From contig JADKKE010000010.1 in the NCBI GenBank assembly GCA_016720655.1, forward strand, positions 69,042 to 133,041: 64,000 bases of DNA, read 5' to 3'. The notes beneath the pieces are model-generated. The model had not been told where the DNA came from. It worked only from the letters and a program-made list of their open reading frames with translations, and did no database searches. The DNA is from Bacteroidota bacterium. GTDB lineage: Bacteria; Bacteroidota; Bacteroidia; AKYH767-A; 2013-40CM-41-45. Each line of letters opens with the position of its first letter. Position 1 is the first letter of the stretch. Below are positions 4,801-52,260 of this stretch, piece after piece. The position numbers and the translations under genes are program-made.

Positions 4801-5289
4801 GAAACCAACAATTCATTTTTCAATATCGAAAGAGGAACAGATGGGATTTCTTATGAATCCATTCAACAAATTAATGGTGCAGGGAACAGTACATCCTTTT
4901 TGACATATGGAGTTACTGATAAAAATCCGATTGAAGGCACATCCTATTACCGGTTGAAACAAACAGATTTTGATGGCAAATATTCTTATTCGAATGTCGA
5001 AGTCATCAATTACACTTCATCACTTGCAAATAAAATTCTGATTAACTCAATAGGTCCGAATCCATTCAAAGACAATTTTACCATACACTTTGCTACTGAA
5101 GCAGAGCAGGATGTGGAATTCCAGCTTTTGAGTTCATCCGGACAAATGTTGGAGAATAAAAAAATTCGTACGCACGACGGTATGAATCAATATGAATACA
5201 CAAATGGACAGAATCTTGAGAATGGCGTGTACTTTATTCAATTGATTTGTCAGGATCAGAAATTGAGCAGGAAGATGGTTAAGAATTAA
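1867..5289 (+). CDS. Large secreted adhesin-like protein of 1140 aa with beta-helix/Gly-Asn-rich repeats and a type-A T9SS C-terminal sorting domain
   Basis: It has a signal peptide (LLLAGAILFALSNVEA) and long degenerate repeats of the form GN/GG/NG. The C-terminal sorting domain reads ...LSWATATETNNSFFNIERGTDG...YYRLKQTDFDGKYSYS...GVYFIQLICQDQKLSRKMVKN. Confidence 0.8.
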   Translation: MSGIIAHLFRKNCLLLAGAILFALSNVEAATKTSAQSGNWTSASTWSPSGVPANSDNVIIANGHTVTIDNNKTIQNITVNSGGILLWNAGKRITINGNFTVNGTATMNKGEITLSSPGLAFTLGPSSFFTWDPGTNNSTNATLFTRGAESFASTSTLIIKNWYNYTLSLGSVITGNFGNLIMNSPGGSSSIVEWNQNNQFETHQILGTLTIDQGWITLDKSGSISSTSIGNIVLTSVNSAFYGHSGTHLGSFSITTGSVTNNGGIFYGLNNGNGNVTINVNGNFTNIGNVKIINNGGVLAVGNGNATFNVSGTYLQSTGDTRIIYNVTTLLSGTFTSTINALSLTGGIFMGQTGCHILGSTSSLTITNNCTINFSSAADKFRCTSLSSIGVVLNNAKVNFTVGGNLVFSGPGAAEFTSSASAGIETIQIGGNLQINSGVFSMNYGTSAASHDLTLTINGDLIVNGGTSYLSRNSGTSVITIGGNISISSGILAVKGSSGSCTFNLTGNFLQNGGTFYLHSNGTTFTPNPITLNISGTFAQSAGTFSFDDNTSNSSAVHILNILGSQYSISGTGIITHAGSGSSTVFGLLRFSGSGTQVYSRTGNTHALTQVKIEIGSNVQIGTGNLLIASGNSAGTDYLKIVTGGKLDLGLNQIISEASFSNCGIQVDSGGTLSTESSYGLYDGTSSASLASTGNMDYFLHASGVIEYTGNGNQILTGTGNGIATSINHQYGILKINKSNTAYAEPVLSNVIVRTQLQMESGELRLNGNTLTISNGNNSGITRNNGYIFSESDASSLVWKDMSGGMHVIPLGLNSTTYLPVSITPTSGFPSDVQISTRGTAADNKPYPAVAAAATSINLLMNGRDGSTDAVVDRWWNFSAPGLTANVILSYPGTENTLSPELSAGMLSMMSWNGSSWSSPRGSGLGVNSGVGTLTINNATQFSHWIIASNSAALPIELAYFTANVTGKEVLLSWATATETNNSFFNIERGTDGISYESIQQINGAGNSTSFLTYGVTDKNPIEGTSYYRLKQTDFDGKYSYSNVEVINYTSSLANKILINSIGPNPFKDNFTIHFATEAEQDVEFQLLSSSGQMLENKKIRTHDGMNQYEYTNGQNLENGVYFIQLICQDQKLSRKMVKN

Positions 5290-5296
5290 GAATTAA

Positions 5297-5352
5297 GAGT
5301 TATGAGTTATGAGTTATGAGTTATGAGTTATGAGTTATGAGTTATGAGTTAA
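5297..5352. repeat. Heptanucleotide tandem repeat (gagttat), about 7.5 copies, preceded by (aagaatt) x2 overlapping the stop codon
   Basis: Perfect tandem copies can be read directly in the sequence. The tract is C-free on the plus strand. Confidence 0.9.
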
Positions 5353-5415
5353 TTTATTATTCAGCAATTTAAGAACAGGGATACAAATCAACAATCATCA
5401 ATCAATATTCGTCTC

Positions 5416-6768: not shown

Positions 6769-6854
6769 ATCCTTCCATTCTAAAAGTATTTAAGCTTCGT
6801 AATAATCCGGTGACGATTTGATTTTATCGGGAACAGGATTTAATCGAATTCATA

Positions 6855-6900
6855 AAAAACAAAAGGGAAACAAATTTCTTTGCTTCCCTTTTGTCTTTTG
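6855..6900 (-). terminator. Terminator hairpin downstream of porE-like copy 1
   Basis: aagggaaacaaa-tttc-tttgcttccctt followed by a T-rich run on the minus strand. An identical element lies at 16655..16700. Confidence 0.5.
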
Positions 6901-6917
6901 TGTTGTTGGGGATCGGA

Positions 6918-8833
6918 TTATTTCTGTGTCATCTTGGTGACCTTAAATTCTGTTCTCCGGTTGGCCTGGTGCTGCTCTTCGCTACACTCCACACCATTGC
7001 TGCAGCCATTCACCAGCTGCGTTTCTCCGTAGCCTTTGGCAACCAGTCGATCAGCAAGGATGCCGTGCTTCACAAGGTAGTCGACGACCGATTCAGCCCG
7101 CTTCTGGGAGAGTGTCATGTTGTATTTGTCGTCGGCCCGCGAATCGGTATGTGAGCCCAGTTCTATCGAGATATCCGATTGTCACGCATGATTCCTACCA
7201 GTTTGTCAAGGCCTTCCGCTGCATCTGTACGGATATTGTATTTATCCAAATCGTAGTAAATGTTCTCCAATACTATCGGTTTGTTCACGATGATCTGTTC
7301 CATCTCCAGCTTGAGCTTGACAAACATATTCTCGCTCTGCTTCTTTCCCACCGTACTGACCGGTTCCGTATTGGTAAAGTAACTGTCCTTGCTCCCCATC
7401 ACTACATAGTCCGTCTCCGGGTTCAGCTTGAAGAAAAATTTTCCATCCGGACCCGTGGTGAAGAGTTCTTCTTGCCCGTCTTCTTGTTGGTCAGTTCAAC
7501 CACCACGCCCGCGAGCGGTTCCTGTGTCGATTTCTCAACAGCTATCCCTTCCAGGGTAAAGCGTAAATCATTCACCGTAAAGGCATAGATATTATCCTGG
7601 GTCGTATTCTTTGTGTCGCGGTTGCTCGATACCAATCCCGCCGTCCCGCTGTCGTTCAAGGCGATTCCAAAATCATCGTAACTCGTATTGAGCGGATAGC
7701 CCATGTTCTGCGGACGGCTCCAACTCCCTTCACTTTGCGTGCTGCTGAATACATCCAGTCCGCCCATTCCGTAATGGCCCTCTGAACTAAAATACAAGAT
7801 CGAATCCTGGAAGCTCATCGGGAAGAGTTCGTTGTTCGGACTGTTTACCGTTGGACCCAGGTTTTCAGGTTTGCTCCACGCTCCGTTTTCTTTTTTGCAA
7901 CGGTACACATCCGTGCTGTCTTGTCCGTTTGGCATGTCATTCACAAAATAGAGTGTGTTCCCGTCTTTGCTCAAACTCGGATGGCCCAAACTATAGTCTG
8001 CATTGTCGTAGGGAAAATCTGTGATGAAACGAAAGGTGCTGTCTTTCTTTATGCCCTGGCAGATCTTTAAGATCACTACATCGTCGTCAGACTTCTTCAC
8101 TTTCCGGGCCACATACGTATTCCGTGTGAAGTAAACAGTATCTCCTTTGCTGCTGAAGCTGGCCGGACCTTCGTGGTAGATTCCGTTCAGTTCTCCTTTG
8201 AGTAATTCCGGTGCGCCGTAATTCCCCTTCCCATTGTCTTTGGAATAATACAAATCCAAAAACGGACGGCCCGTCCACTGGTAGGTTTTCGTCGAACCTT
8301 TTGCCCGGGGTACGGTCGCTCACAAAAACGATTCCATCCTTGTACCACACCGGGGAGAAGTTACTCTGACCGCTGTTGATGCTGCTGCTCTGAAGTGTAT
8401 ACTTTGCACTATCGGCCTGCCACCGTGTAATGCTGTCGCAGGAACTCCGCATTTTGCGCGCGCTTTCATCGCCCGGCTGAGAGCCCAGGTATTGGTCAAA
8501 ATAATTTTTTGCCTGTTCGTATTTTCCGCTCCGCATCAGAAGCTGTGCATACCGAAGGCGGTGGATCGGCTGGACTTCTTTGAGTTGCATCACCTTTCCA
8601 TAGGCTTCCTCCGCCTTGCCCAAATTATTGGTCATCCGGTAACTCTCTGCCAGTTTGATCTGTCCTTCCGGAAAGTTTTTCTTCCCCAGCGCTTTCTGGT
8701 ATTCTTCGATCGCACTGCTGTAGGCCAGATCCCGGTACATCCGGTTACCCTGACGCATGTGATAACTTGCACAGCTACTCAACAGTACTACTACTGCTGC
8801 ACTCGCTGCAATTTTGGAAAAGTTCTTGATCAT
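6918..8833 (-). pseudogene. porE: PorE-like T9SS outer-membrane protein (TPR + PD40/TolB-like beta-propeller + carboxypeptidase-regulatory-like + OmpA_C), copy 1, broken into four ORFs by frameshifts
   Basis: The fragment ORFs 8087..8833, 7423..8259, 7163..7402 and 6918..7118 are collinear with the 510-aa copy 2. The N-terminus has a lipoprotein-like signal (LLSSCAS) and TPR repeats. PD40 motifs (WSKPENLGPTVNSPNNELFP) and an OmpA_C tail (SQKRAESVVDYLVKHGI...NRRTEFKV) are present. The indels relative to copy 2 are mostly at homopolymers. Confidence 0.7.
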
Positions 8834-8838
8834 ATTTT

Positions 8839-8942
8839 ATTTGTTCAAGGTTCAAAGTTCAAGGTTCAAGGTTGTTTTGAGTTGATGAGTTTGAGAGTTA
8901 GGAGTTAGCAACCGTCCCTCGTCCCTCGTCCCCCGTCCCTTC
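8839..8942. repeat. Intergenic short tandem repeats: (ttcaaggt) x4, gag-tt-rich units, and (cgtccc) x3
   Basis: The tandem units are visible directly. The copy at 18405..18500 has different unit numbers. Confidence 0.8.
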
Positions 8943-8944
8943 CC

Positions 8945-9874
8945 TTAAAAATAACGTGGCGTCTTGATCTTCATAATATCATATCCAAAATCATAGCCTA
9001 TCATGATCTCGTGAGAGCCGGAGCTGTAATCCTTGATATCGGTAAATGTAAAATCATAGCTGTAGCCCAAACGCAACTTCTTGCTCAGTTGCAATTCCAA
9101 AAGCGCGACAAAGCTGTCGCCTGTCCGGTAACTTCCGCCGATCCAAAGCGTGTTGGCAAGCAAGACATTCAGATTGAAGTCTGCTTCCACCGGTGCATTC
9201 TGTACATACTTCACCAGCACGCTCGGACGAAGAACTACATCCGGATGCACCGGCAATGCCACACCCACTGTCCCAAAGTAATGGCGCACCTGATGCGGGA
9301 TCACCTCGCCGCTATTCACATCGATACTCAGACTCTTGCTTGGATCATAGCTGATGATCGTAGGTACCGATAAGCCAGCATAAAATTTTTCAGTATACAA
9401 ATAGGCGCCTGCTCCAACGTTCGGCAGGAATTTCGATACCTGATCACCCGCAAAAGCCGGATCACCCGTATCCCAGTATTTTAAATCGCTGTTCTTATAA
9501 CTGTAATACCCGCCTCCGGCACGAAGTCCAACCGAGAGTTTCATCTTCGCTCCTACCTTCAGATGATACGCCGCATTCAGGTACGCATCCGTTCTGTCCG
9601 TCACCGCGATTTTATCATGGCTCAGCAATACGCCCCAGCCAAAATTCGTCAGACCCAAAGGACCGTGCAAAGAAGCAACCTGTGTCTCCGGCGCGCCTTT
9701 AAAATCAACCCACTGCTTCCGGTACAACAGTGTCGCCATCATGTACTCTTTGCTCCCCGCATACGCAGGGTTCAACAGCAAATGATTAAACATATACTGG
9801 CTCACAAGGATGTCCTGCTGCGCATAACCACTAAGGCCACTCAGGAACAGGACGATCGTTAGGATTCTTTTCAT
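8945..9874 (-). CDS. porP: T9SS membrane protein of the PorP/SprF family, copy 1
   Basis: Signal peptide followed by QQDILVSQYMFNHLLLNPAYAG...LLYRKQWVDFKGAPETQ, the hallmark N-terminus of PorP/SprF. The protein is 309 aa. It lies directly downstream of an adhesin with a type-B sorting domain. Confidence 0.9.
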   Translation of the reverse strand: MKRILTIVLFLSGLSGYAQQDILVSQYMFNHLLLNPAYAGSKEYMMATLLYRKQWVDFKGAPETQVASLHGPLGLTNFGWGVLLSHDKIAVTDRTDAYLNAAYHLKVGAKMKLSVGLRAGGGYYSYKNSDLKYWDTGDPAFAGDQVSKFLPNVGAGAYLYTEKFYAGLSVPTIISYDPSKSLSIDVNSGEVIPHQVRHYFGTVGVALPVHPDVVLRPSVLVKYVQNAPVEADFNLNVLLANTLWIGGSYRTGDSFVALLELQLSKKLRLGYSYDFTFTDIKDYSSGSHEIMIGYDFGYDIMKIKTPRYF

Positions 9875-9927
9875 GGGTTTTTATTCGCTCTGCAATTGTT
9901 TTGAAGGAGATGAAGCATGGATGTGAT

Positions 9928-11067
9928 TTATCTCCGTAAATCCACATATGAATTAAGCCGGATATCAGAATTTTTAATGGTGAGTACAACAAAGTAAGTT
10001 CCCTCCGGCAACGCTTCTCCATCCTTATTTTGCCCGTTCCAATCGGTGTTCATGTAGTTTTCCTTTTTGTAAACTTCATTCCCCCAGCGATTGAATACTG
10101 TGAACATATTTTCCGGGTACCTGTTGATGCCATGGATTTCATAGAACTCACCGAAAGGATCACCGTTGGGAGAAAATCCTGTTGGAAGATCGAGATCACA
10201 TTCCGCTACAGGAGGAACAATGATTTGCACTGTATCATATCCATAGCAGGTTCCATCCGTGATTGTCCACAATAAAATATTGGTACCATCTGTCAGGTTC
10301 GTCACTGTTGAATTTGGTGATGAAATACTGCTGAAAGTAGCACTTCCGCTAAGGTAACTCCAGGTACCGGTTACTGCACCGTTCAGTTGAGCGTCCAAAG
10401 AGAAAATCGGATCACAACCGGTCTGGTCAGTACCCGCATTCGCGGCGATCTGATTCGGCTGAACAATGATCACCGAAGAAGTACTCGTACAGTTGTTTCC
10501 ATCTGTAACGGTAACCGTATATGTATTCGGAGCCAGTCCGCTTGCGGAAGAGGTCGTTCCACCTGACGGTGACCAGGAATAGGTATATGGAATAATACCG
10601 CCATTCACATTTGCATTTGCACTACCATCACTTGTTCCATAGCAGGTAACGTTGACGCTTGTAGCTGTAATTGCTATCGCTTGTGGTTGGGTAATGGTAG
10701 CATTTAAATTAAGTGTACACCCATTTGCATCGGTAATCACAACGGAAATGGTACCCGCGGTTAAGCTATCTGCAATCAATCCTGTATCACTATTCGACCA
10801 TGCATACGTATAAGGTGCGGTTCCACCTGTCGCAGCAGTAACACTTGCATTGCCATTGTCACCGGTATTGCAACTCACCGGTGATGTCGAAGCAATACTC
10901 GAAGCAACAGAACCCGGCTGAAGAATATTTACTGAATCCAAAACCACACAATTATTGTTATCTGTGATAGTCACTACTATATATCCCGCTCCCAAACTAT
11001 CCGCACCGGTTCCAATGTCACCATTTGACCAGGAATAATTATAGGGTGAAGCTCCTCCCCGTGACAC
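9928..11067 (-). CDS. C-terminal segment of the copy-1 SprB-repeat adhesin, carrying the type-B T9SS sorting domain
   Basis: The sorting domain ends ...NGQNKDGEALPEGTYFVVLTIKNSDIRLNSYVDLRR. SprB-type repeats (GGTAPYTYAWSN..DTGL..DSL.AGT..V..TDANGC) are present. Its 5' end overlaps the next segment in another frame. Confidence 0.8.
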   Translation of the reverse strand: MSRGGASPYNYSWSNGDIGTGADSLGAGYIVVTITDNNNCVVLDSVNILQPGSVASSIASTSPVSCNTGDNGNASVTAATGGTAPYTYAWSNSDTGLIADSLTAGTISVVITDANGCTLNLNATITQPQAIAITATSVNVTCYGTSDGSANANVNGGIIPYTYSWSPSGGTTSSASGLAPNTYTVTVTDGNNCTSTSSVIIVQPNQIAANAGTDQTGCDPIFSLDAQLNGAVTGTWSYLSGSATFSSISSPNSTVTNLTDGTNILLWTITDGTCYGYDTVQIIVPPVAECDLDLPTGFSPNGDPFGEFYEIHGINRYPENMFTVFNRWGNEVYKKENYMNTDWNGQNKDGEALPEGTYFVVLTIKNSDIRLNSYVDLRR

Positions 11068-11869
11068 TCACATTGGCAGTACCATCATTTACTCCACTAC
11101 ACCGGGCGTCTACTCCCGAAACTGTTGGAATCAGTTGAGGACTTTCCGTGATGGTGGCTGAAACAGTACCTGTACAATTGTTTGCATCCGTAATTGTAAC
11201 TGTCACTGCGCCGGCAGGCAAACTGTCGGCAGTAATACCTGTGTCTCCATTCGTCCATGAATAAGTAAAAGGAGATGTGCCACCACTGAAGGTGACACTC
11301 GCTGAACCAAGCGCTGAACCGAAACACAAATTATCTATCTGAGAAGAAATGCTTGCAGTAATTGTTGGCAGCGCACTTACCACAACGCTATCCAGGTGTG
11401 TACAATTCACGCTGTCAGTTATGGTGATATAATAAGTACCCGGACTTAATCCGCTTGCAGTGGCAGTGCTTTGTCCTCCCGGATTCCAGGAATACGTATA
11501 CGGGGTGAGACCACTGGTTACGACGACACTGGCTGATCCATTTGATTGTCCACAGGTCGTTGCTGTTGACGAAATGGTGTTTGTGATTGCAGGAGGCTCC
11601 GTTAGTGTGAAGCTTGCTGAATCAACACAGCCATTTGCATCTGTAATATTCACAGTGTAGGAATTGGCAGCAAGTCCTGTGATGTTCTGAGTTGTTTCTG
11701 TAGTTGACCAGAGATATGAAATCGGTGCTACACCTCCATTTACATTCAGGTTAATAAATCCATCTCCGGAATTGTTGCATGTCAGATTGAATCCATTGAA
11801 TCCGAAATTGTCGCAACCGGATCCAATGGCAAAGGTTCCGTAAGAATAAAGGAGGTGTCCAACATACAA
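11039..11869 (-). CDS. Middle segment of the same SprB-repeat adhesin, joined to its neighbours by apparent frameshifts
   Basis: Contains the same repeat family (SGLTPYTYSWNPGG...TITDSVNCT). It overlaps both flanking ORFs. Confidence 0.65.
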   Translation of the reverse strand: MYVGHLLYSYGTFAIGSGCDNFGFNGFNLTCNNSGDGFINLNVNGGVAPISYLWSTTETTQNITGLAANSYTVNITDANGCVDSASFTLTEPPAITNTISSTATTCGQSNGSASVVVTSGLTPYTYSWNPGGQSTATASGLSPGTYYITITDSVNCTHLDSVVVSALPTITASISSQIDNLCFGSALGSASVTFSGGTSPFTYSWTNGDTGITADSLPAGAVTVTITDANNCTGTVSATITESPQLIPTVSGVDARCSGVNDGTANVSVTGRSFTL

Positions 11870-16065: not shown

Positions 16066-16482
16066 TTATACAGGCCAATCGTTAATAGTCATAACTGTGC
16101 CCGGTGAATCGCCATAGGTCGTAATCGTCATTTTAAGGGCTGAAATTACGATCCTTTCAGTCATGGGATTTGTATCGTGATCATTGTATGATTCAAAGTA
16201 ATTCACAACGTATGCGTCTTCAAACTCTATCGATTTTTCACGCATTCCGGTTCTCCGTGAACGGAAATGAAGTTCACCTCTTTTTGTTAAATGATGTTCC
16301 ACCATCCATTGAATAAAGGTAATATCTCCCGATGTTTCTACTTCAAGGTTGATCAGCCCTCCGAACACACGACCATTGGGTCTTCCTGTTTCTGTGATGG
16401 GTTGATTGAATGCATAATCACAATGCATCACTCTGTACGTTTTTCCTTCGATTACCAATTCGGCATTGTACACAATAGGCAT
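16066..16482 (-). CDS. Hcp/TssD-like tube protein of the Bacteroidota T6SS-iii type, orphan gene
   Basis: 138 aa. The sequence MPIVYNAELVIEGKTYRVMHCDYAFNQPITETGRPNGRVFGGLINLEVETSGD...SIEFEDAYVVNYFESYNDHDTNPMTERIVISA matches my recollection of Bacteroidota TssD proteins in size and motif order. Confidence 0.55.
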   Translation of the reverse strand: MPIVYNAELVIEGKTYRVMHCDYAFNQPITETGRPNGRVFGGLINLEVETSGDITFIQWMVEHHLTKRGELHFRSRRTGMREKSIEFEDAYVVNYFESYNDHDTNPMTERIVISALKMTITTYGDSPGTVMTINDWPV

Positions 16483-16654
16483 AATAGTTGTTTTTAATGA
16501 ATAAGAAATTTTTAAGATCTGAATCCTTTGACCGATTCAATTGAATCACAAGTTATAAATTTTCAATAACATAGCAAACTTCCAATGGAAGCCCGCCCTT
16601 TCGGAAATACTAAGACCGTCACAATCAACAGCATTTTGTAATAGATTATAAAAA

Positions 16655-16700
16655 GACAAAAGGGAAACAAATTTCTTTGCTTCCCTTTTGTCTTTTGTGT
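16655..16700 (-). terminator. Terminator hairpin downstream of porE-like copy 2
   Basis: The same hairpin plus T-run as at 6855..6900. Confidence 0.5.
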
Positions 16701-16714
16701 TGTTTGGGATCGGA

Positions 16715-18391
16715 TTATTGCTGTGTCATCTTGGTGACCTTAAATTCTGTTCTCCGGTTGGCCTGGTGCTGCTCTTCGCTACACTCCACACCATTGCTGC
16801 AGCCATTCACCAGCTGCGTTTCTCCATAGCCTTTGGCAACCAGACGATCAGCAAGGATGCCGTGCTTCACAAGGTAGTCGACGACCGATTCAGCCCGCTT
16901 CTGGGAGAGTGTCATGTTGTATTTATCGTCGGCCCGCGAATCGGTATGTGAGCCCAGTTCTATCGAGATATCCGGATTGTCACGCATGATTCCTACCAGT
17001 TTGTCAAGGCCTTCCGCTGCATCAGTACGGATATTGTATTTATCCAAATCGTAGTAAATGTTCTCCAGAACTATCGGTTTGTTCACGATGATCTGTTCCA
17101 TCTCCAGCTTGAGCTTGACAAACATATTCTCGCTCTGCTTCTTTCCCACCGTACTCACCGGTTCCGTATTGGTAAAATAACTGTCCTTGCTCCCCATCAC
17201 TACATAGTCCGTCTCCGGGTTCAGCTTGAAGAAAAATTTTCCATCCGGGCCCGTGGTGAAGAGTTCTTTCTTGCCCGTCTTCTTGTTGGTCAGTTCAACC
17301 ACCACGCCCGCCAGCGGTTCCTGTGTCGATTTCTCAACAGCTATCCCTTCCAGGGTAAAGCGTAGATCATTCACCGTAAAGGCGTAGATATTATCCTGGG
17401 TCGTATTCTTTGTGTCGCGGTTACTCGATACCAATCCGGCCGTCCCGCTGTCGTTCAAGGCAATCCCAAAATCATCGTAACTCGTATTGAGCGGATAGCC
17501 CATGTTCTGCGGACGGCTCCAACTCCCTTCACTTTGCGCGCTGCTGAATACATCCAGTCCGCCCATTCCGTAATGGCCCTCTGAACTAAAATACAAGATC
17601 GAATCTGGAAGCTCATCGGGAAGAGTTCGTTGTTCGGACTGTTTACCGTTGACCGAGATTTTCAGGTTTGCTCCACGCTCCGTTTTCTTTTTGCAACGGT
17701 ACACGTCCGTGCCGCCTTGTCCGCCCGGCATGTCACTCACAAAATAGAGTGTGTTCCCGTCTTTGCTCAAGCTCGGATGGCCCAAACTATAGTCTGCATT
17801 GTCGTAGGGAAAATCTGTGATGAAACGAAAGGTGCTGTCTTTCTTTATGCCCTGGCAGATCTTTAAGATCACCACATCGTCGTCTGACTTCTTCACTTTC
17901 CGGGCCACATACGTATTCCGTGTGAAGTAAACCGTATCTCCTTTGCTGCTGAAGCTGGCCGGACCTTCGTGGTAGATTCCGTTCAGTTCTCCTTTGAGTA
18001 ATTCCGGTGCGCCGTAATTCCCCTTCCCATTGTCTTTGGAATAATACAAATCCAAAAACGGACGGCCCGTCCACTGGTAGGTTTTCGTCGAACCTTTGCC
18101 CGGGGTACGGTCGCTCACAAAAACGATTCCATCCTTGTACCACACCGGGGAGAAGTTACTCTGACCGCTGTTGATGCTGCTGCTCTGAAGTGTATACTTT
18201 GCACTATCGGCCTGCCACCGTGTGATACTGTCGCAGGAGCTCCGCATTTTGCGCGCGCTTTCATCGCCCGGCTGAGAGCCCAGGTATTGGTCAAAATAAT
18301 TTTTTTATCCGGTTACCCTGACGCATGTGATAACTTGCACAGCTACTCAACAGTACTACTACTGCTGCACTCGCTGCAATTTTGGAAAAGT
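16715..18391 (-). pseudogene. porE: PorE-like OmpA/PD40 protein, copy 2, with a deletion of about 250 bp in the TPR region and internal compensating frameshifts
   Basis: The 510-aa ORF 16715..18247 carries the PD40 repeats, the carboxypeptidase-regulatory-like region and the OmpA_C domain. The original start at 18391 (MIKNFSKIAASAAVVVLLSSCASYHMRQGN) now runs into a stop because a deletion is visible at 18295..18310. The stretch KKKTERGANLKISVNGKQSEQRTLPDELPD is out of frame relative to copy 1. Confidence 0.7.
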
Positions 18392-18404
18392 TCTTGATCA
18401 TATT

Positions 18405-18500
18405 TTATTTGTTCAAGGTTCAAAGTTCAAGGTTCAAGGTTGTTAGTGGTTTGTGAGTTCGTGGGTTAACGTCCCTCGTCCCCCGTCCCCCGTCCCTTCC
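18405..18500. repeat. Intergenic short tandem repeats (ttcaaggt, gtgrgtt, cgtccc units), a variant of the set at 8839..8942
   Basis: Read directly in the sequence. Confidence 0.8.
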
Positions 18501-18501
18501 C

Positions 18502-19431
18502 TTAAAAATAACGTGGCGTCTTGATCTTCATAATATCATATCCAAAATCATAGCCTATCATGATCTCGTGAGAGCCGGAGCTGTAATCCTTGATATCGGT
18601 AAATGTAAAATCATAGCTGTAGCCCAATCGTAATTTTTTGCTCAGTTGCAATTCTAAAAGCGCTACAAAGCTGTCGCCTGTCCGGTAGCTTCCACCGATC
18701 CAAAGCGTGTTGGCAAGCAAGACATTCAGATTGAAGTCTGCTTCCACCGGTGCATTCTGTACATACTTCACCAGCACGCTCGGACGAAGAACTACATCCG
18801 GATGCACCGGCAATGCCACACCCACTGTCCCAAAGTAATGGCGCACCTGATGCGGGATCACCTCGCCGCTGTTCACATCGATACTCAGACTCTTGCTCGG
18901 ATCATAACTGATGATCGTGGGTACCGATAAGCCCGCATAAAATTTTTCAGTATACAAATAGGCACCTGCTCCAACGTTCGGCAGGAATTTCGATACCTGA
19001 TCACCCGCAAAAGCCGGATCACCCGTATCCCAGTATTTCAAATCGCTGTTCTTATAACTGTAATACCCGCCTCCGGCACGAAGTCCAACCGAGAGTTTCA
19101 TCTTCGCTCCTACCTTCAGATGATACGCAGCATTCAAATACGCATCTGTTCTGTCAGTCACCGCGATCTTATCGTGGCTCAGTAAAACTCCCCAGCCAAA
19201 ATTCGTCAGACCCAAAGGACCGTGCAAAGAAGCAACCTGTGTCTCCGGCGCGCCTTTAAAATCAACCCACTGCTTCCGGTACAACAGTGTCGCCATCATG
19301 TACTCTTTGCTCCCCGCATACGCCGGGTTCAACAGCAAATGATTAAACATATACTGGCTCACAAGGATGTCCTGCTGCGCATAACCACTAAGGCCACTCA
19401 GGAACAGGACGATCGTTAGGATTCTTTTCAT
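18502..19431 (-). CDS. porP: PorP/SprF-family T9SS membrane protein, copy 2, identical protein to copy 1
   Basis: The ORF translation is identical to that of 8945..9874. Confidence 0.9.
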   Translation of the reverse strand: MKRILTIVLFLSGLSGYAQQDILVSQYMFNHLLLNPAYAGSKEYMMATLLYRKQWVDFKGAPETQVASLHGPLGLTNFGWGVLLSHDKIAVTDRTDAYLNAAYHLKVGAKMKLSVGLRAGGGYYSYKNSDLKYWDTGDPAFAGDQVSKFLPNVGAGAYLYTEKFYAGLSVPTIISYDPSKSLSIDVNSGEVIPHQVRHYFGTVGVALPVHPDVVLRPSVLVKYVQNAPVEADFNLNVLLANTLWIGGSYRTGDSFVALLELQLSKKLRLGYSYDFTFTDIKDYSSGSHEIMIGYDFGYDIMKIKTPRYF

Positions 19432-26311: not shown

Positions 26312-26502
26312 ACAGAGAGGGTATCAGATTACACAAGAATAGACGTTCAAAGTAGCGAGATTTTGCGAAAAGACAAAGAAATGATGAAATATTGTAAAAT
26401 TCTGAATCTTTCAGCTGTATAAACCGTTGAAAACACTTGTCAGAAAGGGCCTGCAATCGATCTGGAATTTTATCTTTGCGCCCGATTATTCTAAGTTTAA
26501 AT

Positions 26503-27372
26503 ATGGAGATCCCTAAAGGAAAACTCATTTCTATCGGAGGTAATGAGGACAAAGGCACTGAGCCGGAACCGAAATTCGCTCAGAAAAACAACCTCAATTT
26601 TTTCGAACTTCAGATTCTTGGAAGAATCATGCATGAAGCAGGCGGACACGATGCTTGCATCGAAGTCATCACCAGCGCCAGTTCTATTCCCGAGGAAGTC
26701 GGACAAAATTATCTCGACGCATTTGGAAAACTCGGCTGCAAGAAAATCAGGATCATGAATATCCGAAATCGTGAGGATGCTCAGAAGCCGGAAATGATCG
26801 AAAGACTTCGCAACTGCGACAGTGTCTTATTCAGCGGAGGAAATCAATTGCGATTGTCATCCATTTTTGGCGGCACTGAATTTCTTGAAATTCTTTCCTA
26901 CAGATATATTCATGAAGAAACTTTTGTCATCGCAGGTACAAGTGCCGGCGCGATGGCGATGTCGAACACGATGATTTATCAGGGTTCCAGTTCGGAGGCT
27001 TTGCTTAAAGGTGAAGTTAAAATTACAACAGGCCTTGCATTCATCAAAGATGTGATTATCGATTCGCATTTTGTTACACGCGGACGATTCGGTCGTTTGA
27101 CACAGGCTGTAACCGCGAATCCATCCTGTATCGGAATTGGATTGGGAGAAGATACCGGCGTGCTCATCACTGAAGGTCGTTACATGGAAGCGGTTGGATC
27201 AGGCCTGATCATCATTATCGATGGACACAATATTCGACATACCAACATTGCAGATCTGAAAGAAGGCTCCCCTATCTCCATCGAAAACTTAATCGTGCAT
27301 GTGATGGCAAAAGGAAATCACTTCGATTTGAAGAGCAGAAAATTCTACGCTGAAGCATTGGTGAATAAATAA
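26503..27372 (+). CDS. cphB: Cyanophycinase (peptidase S51)
   Basis: MEIPKGKLISIGGNEDKG..., catalytic Ser in GTSAGAMAMS, GGNQLRL. Divergent from cphA. The ORF-track start at 26437 is probably too far upstream. Confidence 0.8.
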   Translation: MEIPKGKLISIGGNEDKGTEPEPKFAQKNNLNFFELQILGRIMHEAGGHDACIEVITSASSIPEEVGQNYLDAFGKLGCKKIRIMNIRNREDAQKPEMIERLRNCDSVLFSGGNQLRLSSIFGGTEFLEILSYRYIHEETFVIAGTSAGAMAMSNTMIYQGSSSEALLKGEVKITTGLAFIKDVIIDSHFVTRGRFGRLTQAVTANPSCIGIGLGEDTGVLITEGRYMEAVGSGLIIIIDGHNIRHTNIADLKEGSPISIENLIVHVMAKGNHFDLKSRKFYAEALVNK

Positions 27373-30425: not shown

Positions 30426-31675
30426 ATGTTAATATTGGTAAAAGAAAAAATATTCACAATAAAATTGTTTCATTTGCTTTATGAATCCTCCTCCATACTC
30501 AGAGCATGTCAAACATTGGCAACTCAATTCCAATCTGTTTTTTTAAATCACGGCTCTTTTGGCGCAACTCCGAAGATTGTGTTGCAAAAGCAATCGGAAT
30601 ACAGAAATCAAATGGAATTGGATCCTGTCCGGTTCATGATAGATGATCTTGAAAATTTGCTCTGGAATTCTAAGGAACAGCTTGCCCTTCTGGTGGGAGC
30701 AAAAGCTAAAGATTTGGTTTTTGTAAACAATGCGACCACAGGTGTCAACACAGTATTGTTCAACCTGAAGATTAAACAGGGTGATGAATTTCTAACACAC
30801 AATCACGCTTATGGCGCATGCAAAAATGCGCTTGTTCATTATGCCGAAAAACATGGGATCAATGTGCAAGTAGCAGAAGTCCCTTTTCCCCTGAATTCAG
30901 AAGATGAAATTATTGAAGCATTTGTAAAAAAATAAATAGCAAAACGCGCTTTGCATTAATCGACCATATCACTTCGGCAACAGGGTTAATTTTCCCGGTA
31001 AAAAAATTAACCGGAATTCTCCAGGAAAAAGGCATTGAAGTGTTGATCGATGGCGCCCATGCTCCGGGGATGATCGATCTCAACCTCGAAGATATCGGAG
31101 CTGAATATTATACCGGGAATTGTCACAAATGGATTTGTTCTCCGAAAGGTTCAGCAATGCTCCACGTCCGTGCTGATAAGCAGGCAAACTTCCATCCTGT
31201 TTTCACCAGTCATACCTATGATAAACCGGTGGGAGAAAAACGCTGGTCCTCCCAATTCATCTGGGCCGGGACAAGTGATTTCACTCCATACATAAGTATC
31301 GGAGATGCCATCCAATTTGGTGGCTCTCTCATGAACGACTGGCAAACACTTCGTGCCCACAACCACGATCTTACCATTAAAGGAAGAAATATCCTTTTAA
31401 AAGTATTGGACGTCCCGGCACCTGTTCCTGATCACATGCTCGGCTCCTTATCTACTATTCCTTTGCCATTTGCTTATGAACAACCTTCTCACTTTTTCCA
31501 TAACACGCATCCCTTTGGCAAAACGCTCTACGATCAATTCAAAATCCAAATCCCCATCCACGCCTGGCCAGAGAACAATACCCGGATGTGGATCCGCATT
31601 TCAGCTCAAACCTACAATTCAATTGAGCAATACGAATACCTTGGAGAAGCATTAAAAACCTTGCTGAAGCTCTGA
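30426..31675 (+). pseudogene. Class-V PLP-dependent aminotransferase (isopenicillin-N-epimerase-like), split by a +/-1 frameshift at an A8 run near 30918..30935
   Basis: ORF 30426..30935 (..LNHGSFGATPKIV..) and ORF 31040..31675 (..LIDGAHAPGM...GNCHKW, PLP-binding Lys) are joined by an out-of-frame stretch that reads KTRFALIDHITSATGLIFPVKKL. Confidence 0.7.
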
Positions 31676-31679
31676 TTTC

Positions 31680-31795
31680 ATCAGTTCACCCAAAAAAAAA
31701 TTCGTGCATTCGTGGCAAAAAAATAAATGGTGCTATTCATCAGGTCACCAAAAAAATATTCGTGCATTCGTGGCAAAAAAAATTCGTGCTTGACT
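31680..31795. repeat. Direct repeat (2.3 copies of about 55 bp) with the core tcacc-A7-9-attcgtgcattcgtggc-A7-8
   Basis: Read directly. It lies between two convergent genes. Confidence 0.7.
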
Positions 31796-33620: not shown

Positions 33621-33621
33621 T

Positions 33622-33700
33622 GTTGTTAGGTTATTGAGTTATTGGGTTATTAAGTTATTAAGTTATTGAGTTATTAAGTTATTGGGCTAAGGTCGGATAA
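33622..33700. repeat. Nonanucleotide tandem repeat (gttattrag/gttattggg), about 8 copies
   Basis: Read directly. It starts immediately after the asnB start codon region and is C-free on the plus strand. Confidence 0.9.
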
Positions 33701-37605: not shown

Positions 37606-37776
37606 CGAATGCTGTATAAAGTATAAAGTATAAAGTATAAGGTTCTGTGTTTTAGAACGCTCGTTGATTGCTTACATGATTTCAATTTATTCATAAATAC
37701 TGTTAGTGTAATGCATAAAATAAATTCCCTCCGACATCCTACCTTATACTTTATACCTTATACCTAATACCTTCAT
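37606..37776. repeat. Inverted pair of heptamer tandem repeats, (gtataaa/g) x4 and its reverse complement, bracketing about 95 bp of the promoter region
   Basis: gtataaagtataaagtataaagtataagg at 37606-37634, and ccttatactttataccttatacctaatacc at 37740-37770. Confidence 0.85.
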
Positions 37777-37793: not shown

Positions 37794-38033
37794 TCACGGG
37801 AGCTCCTCAAAATCGACATACTCCCCCTCATCCTTCAACTTCTTCTTATCCTTGGGAATATTTTCAACATAAACTTTGCCTTCTTCTTTTCGTTTTTTCT
37901 CTTCCATCTCCTGACGGTTCATGAAATTATCTGCAGCTTTATTGAAAGCATTATAGGAACTAAAGAACACAAATCTCCTTATAGCACTGAAGAAGACAAT
38001 GAGAAGAATGGCGACAATGAGGAATTCTTGCAT
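37794..38033 (-). CDS. Small membrane protein, DUF4834-like
   Basis: 79 aa with an N-terminal TM segment, a Lys/Glu-rich linker and a C-terminal GEYVDFEEL motif. Confidence 0.45.
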   Translation of the reverse strand: MQEFLIVAILLIVFFSAIRRFVFFSSYNAFNKAADNFMNRQEMEEKKRKEEGKVYVENIPKDKKKLKDEGEYVDFEELP

Positions 38034-45185: not shown

Positions 45186-45420
45186 TTTGCCGCAGTGGAA
45201 GGAGGATATATCTTATGCTAGCTCGGAGCTGCTATTATTTCCCAAATTTATCTATACCCGCCACGCCGGATATGTCCCCAGTTAAAAGTTAACAGCTGTG
45301 AAGGATAAGACCCCAGTTAAAAGTTCGCACCCGCTGCGCAGGATATGACTCCAGTTAAAAGTTCAAAGCTGAGAAGGATGCTAACGCTGCGAAGGATCTC
45401 CAAGCCAAAACTTTTACCTC
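45186..45420. repeat. Island repeat array A: 5-6 tandem degenerate units (gctgYgMaggatatgaccccagttaaaagtt..., about 18-38 bp)
   Basis: Read directly. It ends with the variant gctgcgaaggatctccaagcc. Confidence 0.85.
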
Positions 45421-47329: not shown

Positions 47330-47425
47330 TCCAGCTGCGCAGAATATGTCTCGCTCTGCAGGATATGTCCATCTAAAAGCTCACCACTGCGAAGGATGCA
47401 AACCGCTGCGAAGGATATGACCTAT
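47330..47425. repeat. Island repeat array B (4 units, gctgcgcagaatatg.. / ctgcgaaggatgcaaac / cgctgcgaaggatatgacc)
   Basis: Read directly. Confidence 0.85.
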
Positions 47426-49276: not shown

Positions 49277-49309
49277 ACATTTGCGTAACAGACCACATTG
49301 AATACAGAA

Positions 49310-49440
49310 AATAACTGCAGCTAACATCCCCGCTGCGAAGGATAACCTGCCCGTTAAAGTATGCAACCCGCTGCGCAGGATATTACCTCTGTTAAAAGTT
49401 TCCAGCTGCAAGATATGTAATAGCTCGGGGGAAAGTTCTT
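49310..49440. repeat. Island repeat array D (3 units)
   Basis: cgctgcgaaggataacctgcccgttaaagtatgcaac / ccgctgcgcaggatattacctctgttaaaagtttcca / gctgcaagatatg. Confidence 0.85.
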
Positions 49441-50034
49441 GAATTGCCTGTGCGCAAGCTGATCCAACAGCGGAGGTAGGTGGCGATATTAGTATGCAAG
49501 CAAAGGTAATGGCGGAATAAGCAAATACACAATACCGCCCACAACATTTCCAAGCAATGGTTACTGCTTTGTGGCAGATAAGCAATTCGATAGTTTTTAA
49601 TTGTTTTACTAATAATCGACAACAAAAAAGAACAGGAGAAATTATTGTTTAATGCGTATTCAGAACATACCAAAAGTCCTTCTATGGCTTAAAAGGTTAT
49701 GTTTACAGAGTACCTCCACTACTTTTGAATAATGATGGATTAAGAAATTACTTTGTTAGTTGTAATCAAGCTCATGATATCCTAAAGTACTTTGCTTTTT
49801 CGATTGCTTTTCAAGTATTAATCACACTGATTAACAAAATGTTAACTGGATTAATTACAGTGCAGCTTACAAGAATGCTGAAGAAAGAAAGATTTGGGAA
49901 AAGGATGCCGACACCATATCAACTTGGTCTTTAATCGATTTTGTAGTTGAGCATCCTGGCACTTTACTATTTGGTATATCGACATGTATTGTTCGATGTT
50001 TACTTTCCGAAGGCACTGCCACTGTTTTAATACA

Positions 50035-50115
50035 ATTTAAGAAAGTTGAACCCCTGCTACGCAGGATATGACCCCGCTAAAAGTTCAGGCTGCAAAGGAT
50101 CTCATGATCCTTTTC
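50035..50115. repeat. Island repeat array E (2 units, the second being the ggatctcatgatcc variant)
   Basis: Read directly. Confidence 0.8.
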
Positions 50116-50604
50116 CATTCGGTGGTGTGATTTACAATCTACAGTTCTGGGCTTATAAAAGCACTTTTGGTGTCCAATAGTTCAGAAAATCAGGTGTGTT
50201 TACGGTCCTTATCGGAGGAATAAGGCAATCTACTTCGAACAGGGCTTCTTTATCATAGTAATTCCCGGGCGGAGCTGAGTGAACAGCGGCGGAGATGGGA
50301 AATGTGCTTCACTAGAACGGATAAAAGCATGATGCTATGAATATTAGATTTCATGTTTTTCGGTAGGGTGGAAGGTTTTATTGATTAGCTGGAATGGAAT
50401 CAAAATAGTGTCTCCTTACGTTATATTTGATTCAAAGAGAAGCGTTGGCAGGAATATTCTGGCTAATGCAGGCATATACTATCGAAGATCTTATATTATT
50501 GCAATCTGCATTTGTACTCAAAAGAAAATTCTAAGGCGTTCACACTTGCGATATTTTTTTCAGTTTGATTCTACACCACAAATGAAACATCTGGCCTATT
50601 AGGA

Positions 50605-51650
50605 TTGCTTCTTTGTTTCGCTCTTCAGACAAGCGCGCAAATTTTCAGTAAAGAATTTGGCGATATTAATGATACGGTTCAGATATCGGACATCCTTATT
50701 ACAAAAGATTCAAACATTGCCGTCTTTGCACGTTGCGCCCGAAATCCACTTGATGAACTTCTGTTCATCAAATTGGACACTCTGGGGGATACCTTAATGA
50801 CAAAACGATATTCAAATGCTAACAACTTGTTATTGTTTCTGTGGAGCAATCGAAATTTAGACAGTTCATTTTATGTAGTGATGACCAAAACAGATTCTGC
50901 GTTCCCATCGAATCTTGATAAAACGGTCAAATTATATGCCGAAGAGTGTTTATTTTCTGACTGACACAGTAATGGAATTTATGGAAACTCAAATTGGTGA
51001 TCGAGATTCACTTTTGTTCTTTGCAGGAGTGCATATAAAAGTTATTTGTTGAAGATGGACATTCAGGGAAACATTGTCAAGGAGATATTCTTTGGCAGTG
51101 ATGCGTTACACAGTTCCTATAACAGTCCTGAAATAGTGAATTTTATTGTTGATAGAAATCACAATATCATTTGTACGGGAATGGAGGGGGAAGTACATAT
51201 CCCGGAACATTGTTGCAAAGCACCTTCTCGTTAAATTAAATTCAAATGGCGATATTTCGTGGACTTTCTGCAATGCTCTCGCATACGAAGTTTATAACAG
51301 AAGTGGAAGAAAGTTCAGCTGGAGAATATTGGATAATTTCTAAATATTGGTGGATGGGGTCGGAAAGTGCTTCTATAAATATTGTAGATACGAATGGTAC
51401 ATATCTCTGCAGCATATACGGCCCTGGTGATGTCGCGACTACCCACTCCGCTTATTCATTGGCCGACAGCAATCTTGTTTTTACCGGTCGTGTCAATGGT
51501 AACCGGGCTTTCAGAATGGAAGTGAATTCTTCCCGGACGATCATCAATTATAAAATAGGGAATGCGCAGATCGCAACAGAAGCCGTCTTAAACGGAGATC
51601 GAGCAATTTTTGGATCATCGCATACACTCGCTATGGTTGATACACATTAA
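50605..51650 (+). pseudogene. Beta-propeller repeat protein gene, fragmented over four overlapping ORFs
   Basis: A repeated motif of about 50 aa (..DTLGDTLMTKRY.., ..DIQGNIVKEIFFGS.., ..LNSNGDISWTF..) is shared with the minus-strand pseudogenes at 52.4-55.4 kb. A signal-like N-terminus (MLLCFALQTSAQ) is present. Confidence 0.4.
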
Positions 51651-52139
51651 GAGCAATTGCTTCCTGAAGATTCAATAGTCTTAAACCCGACTGTCAACCC
51701 CGGATCTGGGCCGATAATTCGTATTTGGAAATTGTACGGGGACAAATCCAGTTTTTATCAACAAGCACGCCATGGAATTGTTCATCCGGAATCACTATGG
51801 ACAATGGCTGTATTTCTTTAGAACAGAGCAGTTGGAGATGAAGGAGTATTTACTTTTTCCAAATCCCGCAACTGGCAGTTAAATTTCAACAGGAAAACCT
51901 CGCCTTCGGAGCTGTTTTACCTTGTACGACGCACATTCAAATTTGATGGTCAAAGTTTCGAATCCAACCACAAAAAACAATAATATTATTCAACGCCGAT
52001 TATTTTTCATCCGGAATGTATTTTGCCAATTTTGTCACGAGTGTGGAAGCTTGTATTCCGGAAAAGTCATCTTATACATTGAATTAAAGGAAATTTGAGG
52101 CAATACCCGCTCCGCAGATGTGTCTATCTTTTTTTAACC

Positions 52140-52260
52140 ACAGAGGGTCCATGAGATTGTAGATTGTAGAATGCTGATTGTAGATTGTAGATTGTAGATT
52201 GCTGATTGGTGATTTTAAATTGCTGATTGTAGATTTAAGAACTTCTCTGTGCTGCTCGGT
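52140..52260. repeat. Tandem repeat of approximately gattgtagatt / gattgctgatt units, about 9 copies
   Basis: Read directly. It is C-poor on the plus strand. Confidence 0.85.

Follow-up and report, generated by a model that had tools for sequence, protein, structure and literature searches.

Tandem arrays of short units in an uncultured Bacteroidota bacterium are real, slippage-prone 7- to 8-bp microsatellites that fill gaps between genes, and they belong to a class of repeats already known from cyanobacteria, Xanthomonas, Beggiatoaceae, and a few Bacteroidetes. Our preferred reading, to which we assign a probability of roughly 60%, is that they are long simple sequence repeats (LSSR; STRR in cyanobacteria) made by slippage, tolerated only in intergenic DNA that is probably transcribed and filtered there by the constraints acting on mRNA leaders.

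Arrays between Genes

Where do the arrays lie? The window—the whole 64,000-nt stretch of DNA that was analyzed—carries genes for type IX secretion (T9SS), gliding, SprB, and PorP/SprF. Arrays were located by Tandem Repeats Finder (TRF) and by direct reading of the letters, which recovered the arrays of a first-pass annotation at the places it had given or a few bases away:

5278-5351, + strand: post-stop array of 10 units (AAGAATT x2, AAGAGTT, ATGAGTT x7)
5381-5410, + strand: pre-start array of about 3 AATCAAC-type heptamers, G-free
8843-8873, - strand: CCTTGAA x4.4 on the coding strand (GTTCAAG x4.4 forward), 9 nt from the ATG at 8833
8868-8908, - strand: middle array of about 5 degenerate, G-free CTAACTC-type units (coding strand)
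8913-8944, - strand: G-quadruplex-type array, AGGGACG x4 on the coding strand (CGTCCCT x4 forward), 4 nt after the porP stop
18411-18501, - strand: paralogous three-array intercistronic region, with arrays at 18411-18441 and 18470-18496 and the middle array between them
33621-33686, - strand: pre-start array of AATAACTY octamers x8 on the coding strand (GTTATTRA forward), G-free
37614-37640, - strand: pre-start arm of an inverted pair, TTTATAC x3.9 on the coding strand (GTATAAA forward), G-free
37740-37773, - strand: post-stop arm of the same pair, AAGGTAT x4.9 on the coding strand, C-free
52154-52235, + strand: post-stop array between convergent genes, AGATTGT x11.7, degenerate (74% matches)
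56726-56768, + strand: left arm of a second inverted pair, TGATTTNNA units, upstream of a PDDEXK_3 gene (56982-57377)
56852-56897, + strand: right arm of the second pair, AAAATCA-type units, 2 G in 46 nt and no start codons

The arrays at 5381-5410, at 8868-8908 and its duplicate, and in the pair 56726-56768/56852-56897 are additions to the earlier list. Unit length, previously given as 7–11 bp, is 7 nt in eight of nine arrays and 8 nt in the remaining one; "ttcaaggt" is a 7-mer, "cgtccc x3" a 7-mer x4, "gttattrag" an 8-mer, and "gattgtagatt x9" a 7-mer x11.7. Arrays also create spurious ORF calls (e.g., 8492-8908 and 52084-52278).

Most arrays do abut the end or start of a gene, as had been claimed for all of them. 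The array at 5278-5351 covers the TAA stop (5287-5289) of a T9SS-cargo ORF (1867-5289), and the ATG at 5416 follows 5 nt after the end of the AATCAAC array. The intercistronic spacer at 8843-8944, between porP/sprF (stop 8945) and a TPR-PD40-OmpA gene, consists almost entirely of its three arrays. The octamer array ends 1 nt from the asnB start at 33620 (GTG-TGC, Met-Cys), while the arms of the first inverted pair begin 20 nt past the stop of a small DUF4834 ORF (37794-38033) and lie 36 nt from the yfhO ATG (37577), respectively. The exception is 52154-52235, which abuts no intact ORF; it begins 55 nt past the stop, at 52096-52098, of a T9SS C-terminal-domain gene that is frameshifted. Rfam returned no matches at gathering thresholds across the whole window, and no tRNA or tmRNA was found in it. 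Exact-protein look-ups of AsnB (with a V or M start), the glycosyltransferase, and one PDDEXK_3 start returned no match; the best AsnB match in the species-representative collection, from which the window's own genome is absent, was 83%.

Could such arrays arise by chance? For the statistics, an array had a period of 4–15, at least 3 copies, and a score of at least 40. The window holds nine. Over 100 Markov shuffles the mean was 0.04, and no shuffle gave more than 1. None of the nine lies inside a confident ORF, with about 77% of the window coding; the view that the arrays are intergenic and non-random is thus borne out. Period-7 arrays reach 1.25 per 10 kb in the window vs. 0.11 per 10 kb in 1.59 Mb of other bacteria's loci. 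G-free runs of at least 30 nt (29 vs. 23 expected) and C-free runs (21 vs. 16) are not enriched overall, and only the longest of them are arrays.

Arrays Gain and Lose Whole Units

The arrays are mutable, as the first-pass annotation had proposed: conspecific and near-conspecific sequences differ by whole-unit indels of 7, 14, 21, 28, and about 24 nt. The annotation's own evidence was different unit numbers at the duplicated loci; the flanking arrays of the two window copies (8843-8944 and 18411-18501) in fact have equal unit numbers. The copies differ instead by a single substitution in the G-rich array and, in the middle CTAACTC-type array, by an 11-nt indel and about nine substitutions, the copy at 18411-18501 being the shorter. 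Among 12 copies of the porP-ompA spacer with identical PorP protein we found six alleles (indels of 7, 14, and 11 nt); the G-rich array varies between three and four units among conspecifics, and all 12 copies retain at least four G-tracts (G3+N1-7 x4).

The conspecific metagenome-assembled genomes (MAGs GCA_016718015.1 and GCA_963852685.1) show the same at 5278-5351, with 10 units in the window and 7 and 6 in the MAGs, and at 5381-5410, with 3 in the window and 6 in each MAG; against a 97.6%-identical MAG, each of these two arrays differs by 21 nt. The asnB array has 8 units in the window vs. 4.4 in a 95%-identical strain (L081), a 23-nt indel. Over 7.4 kb aligned between these two, a 60-nt tandem repeat is the only other place with multi-nucleotide indels; the rest (23, 5, and 1 nt) lie in or beside the asnB array. 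The arm at 37740-37773 is unchanged across three samples (the window, L109, and L110). Contig L110 ends inside an array; arrays break short-read assemblies.

A Strand Rule Relative to Genes

Arrays directly past a stop codon have no C on the coding strand, and those directly ahead of a start codon have no G; this rule is obeyed in 9/9 independent cases, a small sample drawn from 64 kb and a few relatives. The lack of C on one strand that had been described is therefore seen, but it is really a matter of orientation relative to the flanking genes. The array at 5278-5351 is C-free on its coding strand, and that at 52154-52235 has 3 C in 82 nt; both have stop codons in all frames (3/3 in the former), as does one arm of the pair 37614-37640/37740-37773 (arrays 1, 5, and 4a). 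The G-free pre-start arrays hold no start codon in any frame, the AATCAAC array included. G-containing pre-start arrays do exist: CCTTGAA in the window, and AATCAGACA and GATTAGCA in the relative L085.

A replication-strand cause of the bias was rejected, since on either strand it goes with the direction of the genes, at + strand genes (5416 and 56982) and at - strand genes (8833, 33620, and 37577). Leaders in general are A-rich and only mildly G-poor (14–17% G), so leader composition is insufficient on its own to account for G-free arrays. That the C-rich, G-free leaders might load Rho (as rut sites) was also considered; cyanobacteria, which have no Rho (PMC12642595), follow the same rule.

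How might slippage and leader constraints together yield this pattern? Replication slippage would make arrays grow and shrink by whole units, and they would survive only between genes because the period is not a multiple of three and most arrays have stops in every frame of one strand or of both. Most would be intercistronic spacers or 5' leaders, and these are probably transcribed, since most lie between codirectional genes without a predicted intrinsic terminator: no terminator-like site was found in any array-bearing spacer, and clear ones occur elsewhere in the window (e.g., 1305-1334 and 27396-27415). Selection at the level of the mRNA would then filter which units persist. A G-free leader would contain no AUG, GUG, or UUG and no Shine-Dalgarno (SD)-like sequence, and would allow only weak A-U pairing. 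Bacteroidetes have SD-blind ribosomes, AUG depletion, and structure-tuned initiation (PMC6847099, PMC9976891); such leaders would suit ribosomes that do not read SD sequences and instead depend on leaders rich in A, weak in structure, and poor in AUG. Where two cistrons meet, reverse-complement partners could form hairpins, and the G-quadruplex-type (AGGGACG)4 array a G4. If expression is affected at all, the effect is likely small and due to structure rather than to a specific sequence.

Array-bearing leaders in the window are marginally less structured than its other leaders (-7.8 vs. -11.6 kcal/mol, P = 0.056), and start-site accessibility does not differ between the two sets (P = 0.29). 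A scan for the Bacteroidetes promoter motif (TAnnTTTG with an upstream TTTG) found one perfect -7 box near an array, TATTTTTG in L081; sigma-70 scans are not applicable to this phylum. A promoter between the arms of a pair is at most a candidate idea.

Inverted Pairs Recur at the Same Junctions

Pairs of arrays are often reverse complementary around an AT-rich spacer of 60–150 bp. The partner that had been noted for the GTATAAA array lies at 37740-37773, with 90% complementarity over 30 nt, and the arms of the second window pair are 86% complementary over 35 nt. Relatives (L002, L085, L003, L004, and L081) have arrays at the same intergenic positions with unrelated units; at the asnB position, for example, L002 has CAACAAC-type heptamers. 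At the carB/DUF4834-yfhO junction, the window, L002, L085, L003, and L004 all carry inverted pairs, again built of unrelated units. A pure filter model leaves this recurrence of pairs at the same positions, after full sequence turnover, unexplained.

Is the pair itself, then, a selected structure, kept by position while its sequence turns over? It could act as a hairpin in read-through transcripts (an RNase III site, insulator, or stabilizer) or as a DNA cruciform or invertible spacer. Beyond the shared junction, this possibility draws on the additional pairs upstream of asnB in L002 and at 56726/56897 in the window, on the arms in L085, which mirror each other unit variant by unit variant (31/31), on predicted hairpins with folding z-scores of -3.9 to -4.6, and on the hairpins that STRR form between cyanobacterial cistrons (PMC2670836). 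We nevertheless regard it as unlikely. The asnB array (in both the window and L081) and the arrays at 5278-5351 and 52154-52235 have no partner, and template switching can produce mirrored arms mutationally, without selection. Sense and antisense strands of the pairs do not differ consistently in folding energy, which gives no specific indication of structure or selection at the RNA level. The spacer has the same orientation in all three observations (the window, L109, and L132), with no inversion seen, and no recombinase was noted near the pairs among the ORFs scanned, which were part of all ORFs.

A more specific version—that the paired arrays and the G4-type array form a selected cistron-junction module in SD-less Bacteroidota, one that tolerates complete sequence turnover—we hold to be distinctly unlikely. 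In read-through transcripts the post-stop array would pair with the following gene's G-free leader, marking the junction for processing or silencing the leader; in transcripts initiated in the spacer, the leader would be free, unstructured, and devoid of start codons. Renewal of the module by slippage and by template switching between arms would explain why position is conserved and sequence is not.

PDDEXK_3 genes belong to a family often found as small insertions, and one such gene follows the second window pair. The array-spacer-array units might be MITE- or Correia-like mobile elements, their arms serving as terminal inverted repeats: the modules are 170–260 bp long, have inverted ends of 30–35 nt, and lie in intergenic DNA, and the arms in L085 enclose an opposite-strand ORF for a small four-helix bundle. 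We rejected this hypothesis, now extremely improbable, because the spacers are not homologous: those of different modules share no sequence, within the genome or between orthologous loci. Moreover, terminal units differ between the window modules, many arrays are unpaired, and no target-site duplication is evident.

Possible Protein Binding and Phase Variation

Do the arrays control neighboring genes? Cold-shock-domain proteins bind about 7 nt per monomer, and such a protein, ribosomal protein S1, or a regulator could use the arrays as multimeric sites from which to regulate the downstream gene, at translation or at transcription. Arrays lie 1–36 nt from start codons, and on the G-free strand three of them (5278-5351 as its reverse complement, 8868-8908, and the asnB array) have an (A)TAACTY core in common, one base off TAACTGA, for which binding sites have been proposed (PMC4679880); reporter data, in addition, suggest that heptamers modulate recF/recO expression in Nostoc. 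Binding by a single protein, which the first-pass annotation had suggested for DNA, is nevertheless improbable because units differ between loci of one genome (TTTATAC, CCTTGAA, AGATTGT, and AGGGACG) and between orthologous loci. Unrelated units at orthologous sites argue against sequence-specific recognition, and copy number is free to vary among conspecific strains. Overall, we find binding sites quite unlikely.

Contingency (phase-variation) tracts, in which gain and loss of units would reversibly switch neighboring genes, many of them surface or secreted, had also been proposed. Unit number is indeed polymorphic between strains, and several neighbors encode T9SS cargo or PorP/SprF or OmpA-like surface proteins. 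However, switching by frameshift is impossible because no array lies within an ORF, and arrays of 27–82 nt exceed any promoter spacer, so that the tracts are also unlikely to fall between core promoter elements. Housekeeping asnB, yfhO, and carB-linked loci bear arrays in several species, three samples share an identical arm at 37740-37773, and an earlier study came to the same negative verdict on this repeat class (PMC4692102). We therefore consider a contingency role very unlikely.

Heptanucleotide repeats are the commonest long microsatellites of prokaryotes, and their function is unsettled after more than 30 years. This lineage offers a good natural test between slippage debris under mRNA constraints and structural elements at cistron junctions because many different units occur within a single genome, several long-read MAGs of the same species exist, and its ribosomes ignore SD sequences. 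The arrays are also ready strain-typing markers for an activated-sludge-type bacterium.

Comparison with Known Repeat Systems

To which known repeats do the arrays correspond? Contingency simple sequence repeats (SSRs) of host-adapted pathogens have units of 1–5 nt, lie inside ORFs or between promoter elements, and switch surface antigens. They share slippage-prone tandem units and strain-dependent copy number with the arrays described here, which, however, have 7- to 8-nt units and lie outside ORFs, also beside housekeeping genes.

The LSSRs of prokaryotes, with units of 5–11 nt (Mrazek et al. 2007, as summarized in PMC4679880), are closer. According to that summary they have mostly 7-nt units, exceed chance, are mostly non-coding, occur sporadically across lineages, and are attributed to polymerase slippage. 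The window arrays likewise repeat a unit of this size head to tail beyond chance, lie mainly in non-coding DNA, and vary in length by whole units. They differ in that many units coexist in this one genome and in their host, since no Bacteroidota appear among the richest genomes of the survey as summarized there (PMC4679880).

Placement, strand rule, and inverted pairs are all on record (PMC4692102, PMC4679880, PMC2670836), and the idea of an unusual, lineage-specific class must be given up. G-quadruplex-forming heptamers (GGGNATC and GGGGA(C/T)T) in Xanthomonas and Nostoc (Rehm et al. 2015, PMC4692102) are intergenic, mostly between codirectional ORFs, and have the G-rich strand in sense within 50 bp after stops and in antisense within 50 bp before starts, which is exactly the rule of the window. 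They favor four units and form inverted pairs, and related species have arrays between the same genes that vary in length and sequence (PMC4692102). The array past the porP stop matches them in its four units and G-tracts, on the sense strand and within 50 bp, but its unit is AGGGACG/GGGGACG and its quadruplex is predicted; most window arrays are A/T-rich without G4 potential, and the host is a Bacteroidota.

The TAACTGA direct repeats of Beggiatoaceae, cyanobacteria, and five Bacteroidetes (MacGregor 2015, PMC4679880) are heptamers that lie forward, a few nucleotides upstream of starts, and occasionally in reverse just past a stop; the five Bacteroidetes carry other heptamers as well. Relatives lack the arrays or have altered ones, and short-read contigs break within them, as L110 does here (PMC4679880). 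The asnB, AATCAAC, and CCTTGAA arrays agree in being intergenic and forward, 1, 5, and 9 nt from their starts, respectively. The window has no TAACTGA array, however: its nearest units, TAACTCA (5278-5351, in reverse) and AATAACTY (asnB), both have no G.

Lastly, the 7-bp units of cyanobacterial STRR form hairpins between cistrons such as hupS-hupL, in intergenic regions of operons that vary in sequence and keep their structure between close relatives; transcript stability or translational coupling has been proposed as their role (PMC2670836, which also cites Jackman and Mulligan 1995 on these repeats). The arrays described here differ in phylum and in units. None appears to contain the classical STRR1-3 units of filamentous cyanobacteria.

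Distribution and Strand Bias of the Arrays

Where do the short tandem arrays of this window lie with respect to its genes, and how far do they exceed chance? At a period of 4 to 15 and at least three copies, the whole window holds nine arrays, against a mean of 0.04 in 100 Markov shuffles. An array was recovered by both TRF and direct reading at every locus named in the first-pass annotation; several unit lengths proposed there (7 to 11 bp) were misjudged, as the TRF period is 7 in eight of the nine and 8 in the other. Period-7 arrays occur at 1.25 per 10 kb in the window versus 0.11 per 10 kb in a comparison set (loci of other bacteria, 1.59 Mb in total). The arrays are restricted to intergenic DNA: all lie outside confident ORFs, with about 77% of the window coding. 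The array at 52154-52235 had been placed against an intact ORF; it instead begins 55 nt after a frameshifted T9SS C-terminal-domain gene. An inverted repeat around it (52131-52145 / 52255-52269, 15 nt, 87% complementary) would put the whole array in a hairpin loop, though it may be a chance match.

We next asked how base composition relates to gene orientation. The arrays had been described as C-poor on one strand. The base bias itself stands, but it is set relative to genes: arrays after stop codons lack C on the coding strand, and arrays before start codons lack G.

Arrays with gene-relative base bias in the window and in its relatives (L002, L085; L081, a 95%-identical strain)
5278-5351, C-free post-stop array, read on the coding strand
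37740-37773, C-free post-stop array, read on the coding strand
52154-52235, nearly C-free post-stop array (3 C in 82 nt)
L002 5658-5692 and 9794-9823, L085 9432-9462, C-free post-stop arrays
5381-5410, G-free pre-start array of AATCAAC units, overlooked at first pass
8868-8908, G-free pre-start array, degenerate, CTAACTC-type, overlooked at first pass
33621-33686, G-free pre-start array in the asnB leader
37614-37640, G-free pre-start array
56852-56897, G-free pre-start array, inverted partner of 56726-56768; pair overlooked at first pass
L002 5844-5904 and 9948-9989, L081 3829-3863, L085 9955-9985, G-free pre-start arrays

The rule is obeyed in 9/9 independent cases (each reverse-complement pair counted once), and the exceptions are units containing both bases (CCTTGAA, AGGGACG, and two L085 arrays). 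None of the G-free arrays has an ATG, GTG, or TTG in any frame; the arrays at 5278-5351, at 52154-52235, and in one arm of the 37614-37640 / 37740-37773 pair have stops in all three frames. ORFs that seem to end or begin exactly at arrays therefore do so partly because the arrays hold stops and no start codons.

The 111-nt spacer that separates porP/sprF from the OmpA-like gene consists almost entirely of three arrays, the first of which, (AGGGACG)4, lies on the sense strand 4 nt after the porP stop. Terminator-like hairpins were found in none of the array-bearing spacers, with clear terminators elsewhere in the window; the arrays are thus probably transcribed. The spacer belongs to a duplication of about 2.4 kb (6854-9212 and 16651-18769; porP/sprF plus a TPR-PD40-OmpA gene, 96-99% identity), whose second copy has a 227-bp deletion relative to conspecific metagenome-assembled genomes (MAGs).

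Length Variation among Strains

The first-pass annotation held the arrays to be mutable, and whole-unit length differences contradict invariance across strains. Over 7.4 kb shared with L081, multi-nucleotide indels are confined to the asnB-leader array region (indels of 23, 5, and 1 nt within or next to the array; 8 units in the window versus 4.4) and one 60-nt tandem repeat. The latter (31692-31789, units of ~60 nt) lies between convergent asnB and aminotransferase genes, with two copies versus three in L081 (a 60-nt indel). Among three conspecific genomes, the array at 5278-5351 has 10, 7, and 6 units and the neighboring AATCAAC array 3, 6, and 6. Two further samples carry the post-stop arm at 37740-37773 in identical form (one of their contigs ends within the array), and unit numbers of the 56.7-kb inverted pair are unchanged in another sample.

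Exact-protein look-up of PorP returned four conspecific MAGs (GCA_016718015.1, GCA_963852685.1, GCA_016718125.1, and GCA_016702675.1); several short-read metagenome contigs came to light as well. Across assemblies with a 100% identical PorP protein, the porP-ompA spacer has six alleles in 12 copies. The AGGGACG array varies by one unit (7 nt), the CCTTGAA array by two (14 nt), and the middle array by 11 nt; at least four G-tracts are kept by the (AGGGACG)4-type array in all 12. Both short-read and long-read assemblies contain these alleles, which rules out an assembly artefact. Their assignment to the paralogous loci varies from MAG to MAG, a pattern that suggests gene conversion. Within the window, the difference in unit number reported between the duplicate loci is absent from the arrays for which it was claimed; the loci differ in the middle array, where one indel (11 nt) and about nine substitutions separate them, with identical flanks.

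Inverted Pairs at Conserved Junctions

Array position is conserved despite sequence turnover, and the paired arrays have hairpin potential. The arms 37614-37640 and 37740-37773, at the DUF4834-yfhO junction, are 90% complementary over 30 nt, and in the second pair (56726/56897) complementarity is 86% over 35 nt. L002 (AsnB 79% identical) has arrays at DUF4834-yfhO and at glycosyltransferase-asnB, both array-bearing in the window, in both cases as two inverted arms separated by 125-150 bp of AT-rich DNA; its units (GTTGTTG / AACCAAC) have nothing in common with those of the window. In L085 the arms (ATTGAAA / TTTCAAT) are mirrored 31/31. At DUF4834-yfhO, two other loci (L003 and L004) have arrays of 10-mers, likewise with inverted partners, and four (L005, L083, L084, and L105) have none. 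Predicted stems of the pairs reach significance (z-scores of -3.9 to -4.6), with no consistent bias between sense and antisense folding energies. Template switching between arms could account for the recurrence of inverted partners; alternatively, they may be selected hairpins.

Two neighboring observations concern other loci. Between the mirrored L085 arrays (9429-10000, reverse strand), a four-helix-bundle-like ORF of the 23S rRNA intervening-sequence type, assigned by eye from its translation, occupies the place of the relatives' DUF4834 small ORF. In L006 (Cloacimonadales; 18683-19418), five AGGTGTT arrays about 173 bp apart are nested in a longer repeat.

Host Genome and a Dispersed Repeat Family

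Pfam hits to PorP/SprF, SprB repeats, and CHU_C and Por_Secre_tail sorting domains identify the window as Bacteroidota; cyanophycin synthetase, AsnB, CarB, and YfhO are also among the hits. Among species representatives, which do not include the window's own genome, the nearest AsnB loci come from uncultured Bacteroidia (83% and 79% identity); GCA_016718015.1 is 97.6% identical to the window over about 29 kb. Many 1-nt indels lie inside window genes relative to a conspecific MAG and L081, so frameshift errors of a long-read assembly are the probable source, or else the window carries several pseudogenes. Genes split in this way relative to L081 and two further loci (L124, L125) lie at 30426-31675, 7178-8302, 11060-11805, 17606-17693, 50380-52098, and 52599-55414. 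Other genes include a TssD/Hcp-like gene beside gliding/T9SS genes (16066-16482), a cyanophycin synthetase and cyanophycinase pair (23657-27372), and a row of three T9SS-cargo genes whose C-terminal sorting domains are nearly identical, one gene having seven RCC1 repeats (60659-63988).

A dispersed repeat with the core CCCGCTGCGAAGGATATGACCC occurs in seven copies (up to 3 mismatches allowed, every copy on the + strand; 0 in 100 shuffles).

Copies of the CCCGCTGCGAAGGATATGACCC family
45247-45404, +
47402-47423, +
49357-49441, +
50053-50074, +
53971-53992, +
56545-56694, +
57624-57645, +
52104-52130, degenerate copy

Within an island of low GC at 41-58 kb, the copies lie between small ORFs (DUF5343, Abi_alpha, and PDDEXK_3), a layout that looks like cassette boundaries, but no integrase was seen. 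The array at 52154-52235 is located just downstream of one copy, as is the 56.7-kb inverted pair of another.

Proposed Origin and Relation to Known Repeats

How might such arrays arise and persist? There is good evidence for their mutability and gene-relative strand rule. We propose that slippage would generate arrays and that those inside ORFs would be purged, since their period is not divisible by three and stop codons occur in most units. Where spacers are transcribed, selection at the mRNA level would then retain G-free units ahead of start codons. Bacteroidia ribosomes initiate without Shine-Dalgarno pairing, AUG depletion is seen upstream of starts, and weak structure tunes initiation (PMC6847099, PMC9976891). 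Our test of mRNA-leader structure gave a weak trend (P = 0.056).

The arrays had been taken for a novel, lineage-specific class; they are instead a Bacteroidota instance of a heptanucleotide repeat class known from Xanthomonas, Nostoc, Beggiatoaceae, cyanobacteria, and a few Bacteroidetes. As Mrazek (2007) is cited in PMC4679880, heptanucleotides are the most abundant of the 5-11 nt simple repeats of prokaryotes, with polymerase slippage blamed. In Beggiatoaceae, cyanobacteria, and five Bacteroidetes, TAACTGA heptamers precede start codons by a few nucleotides at most and are accompanied by other heptamers; they are absent from close relatives, and contigs break in the arrays (PMC4679880). STRR heptamers of cyanobacteria fold into hairpins at intercistronic sites (PMC2670836). 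The suggested role as contingency tracts is unsupported, and for GGGNATC-type repeats of the same class, in Xanthomonas and Nostoc, phase variation was judged unlikely (PMC4692102). Those repeats are intergenic, between co-directional ORFs, with the G-rich strand sense ≤50 bp after stops and antisense ≤50 bp before starts; four units are preferred, inverted repeats are possible, and the same gene junctions are occupied in related species with varying length and sequence (PMC4692102). The (AGGGACG)4 array of the window, a putative G-quadruplex former, fits this G4 class in every feature but unit sequence.
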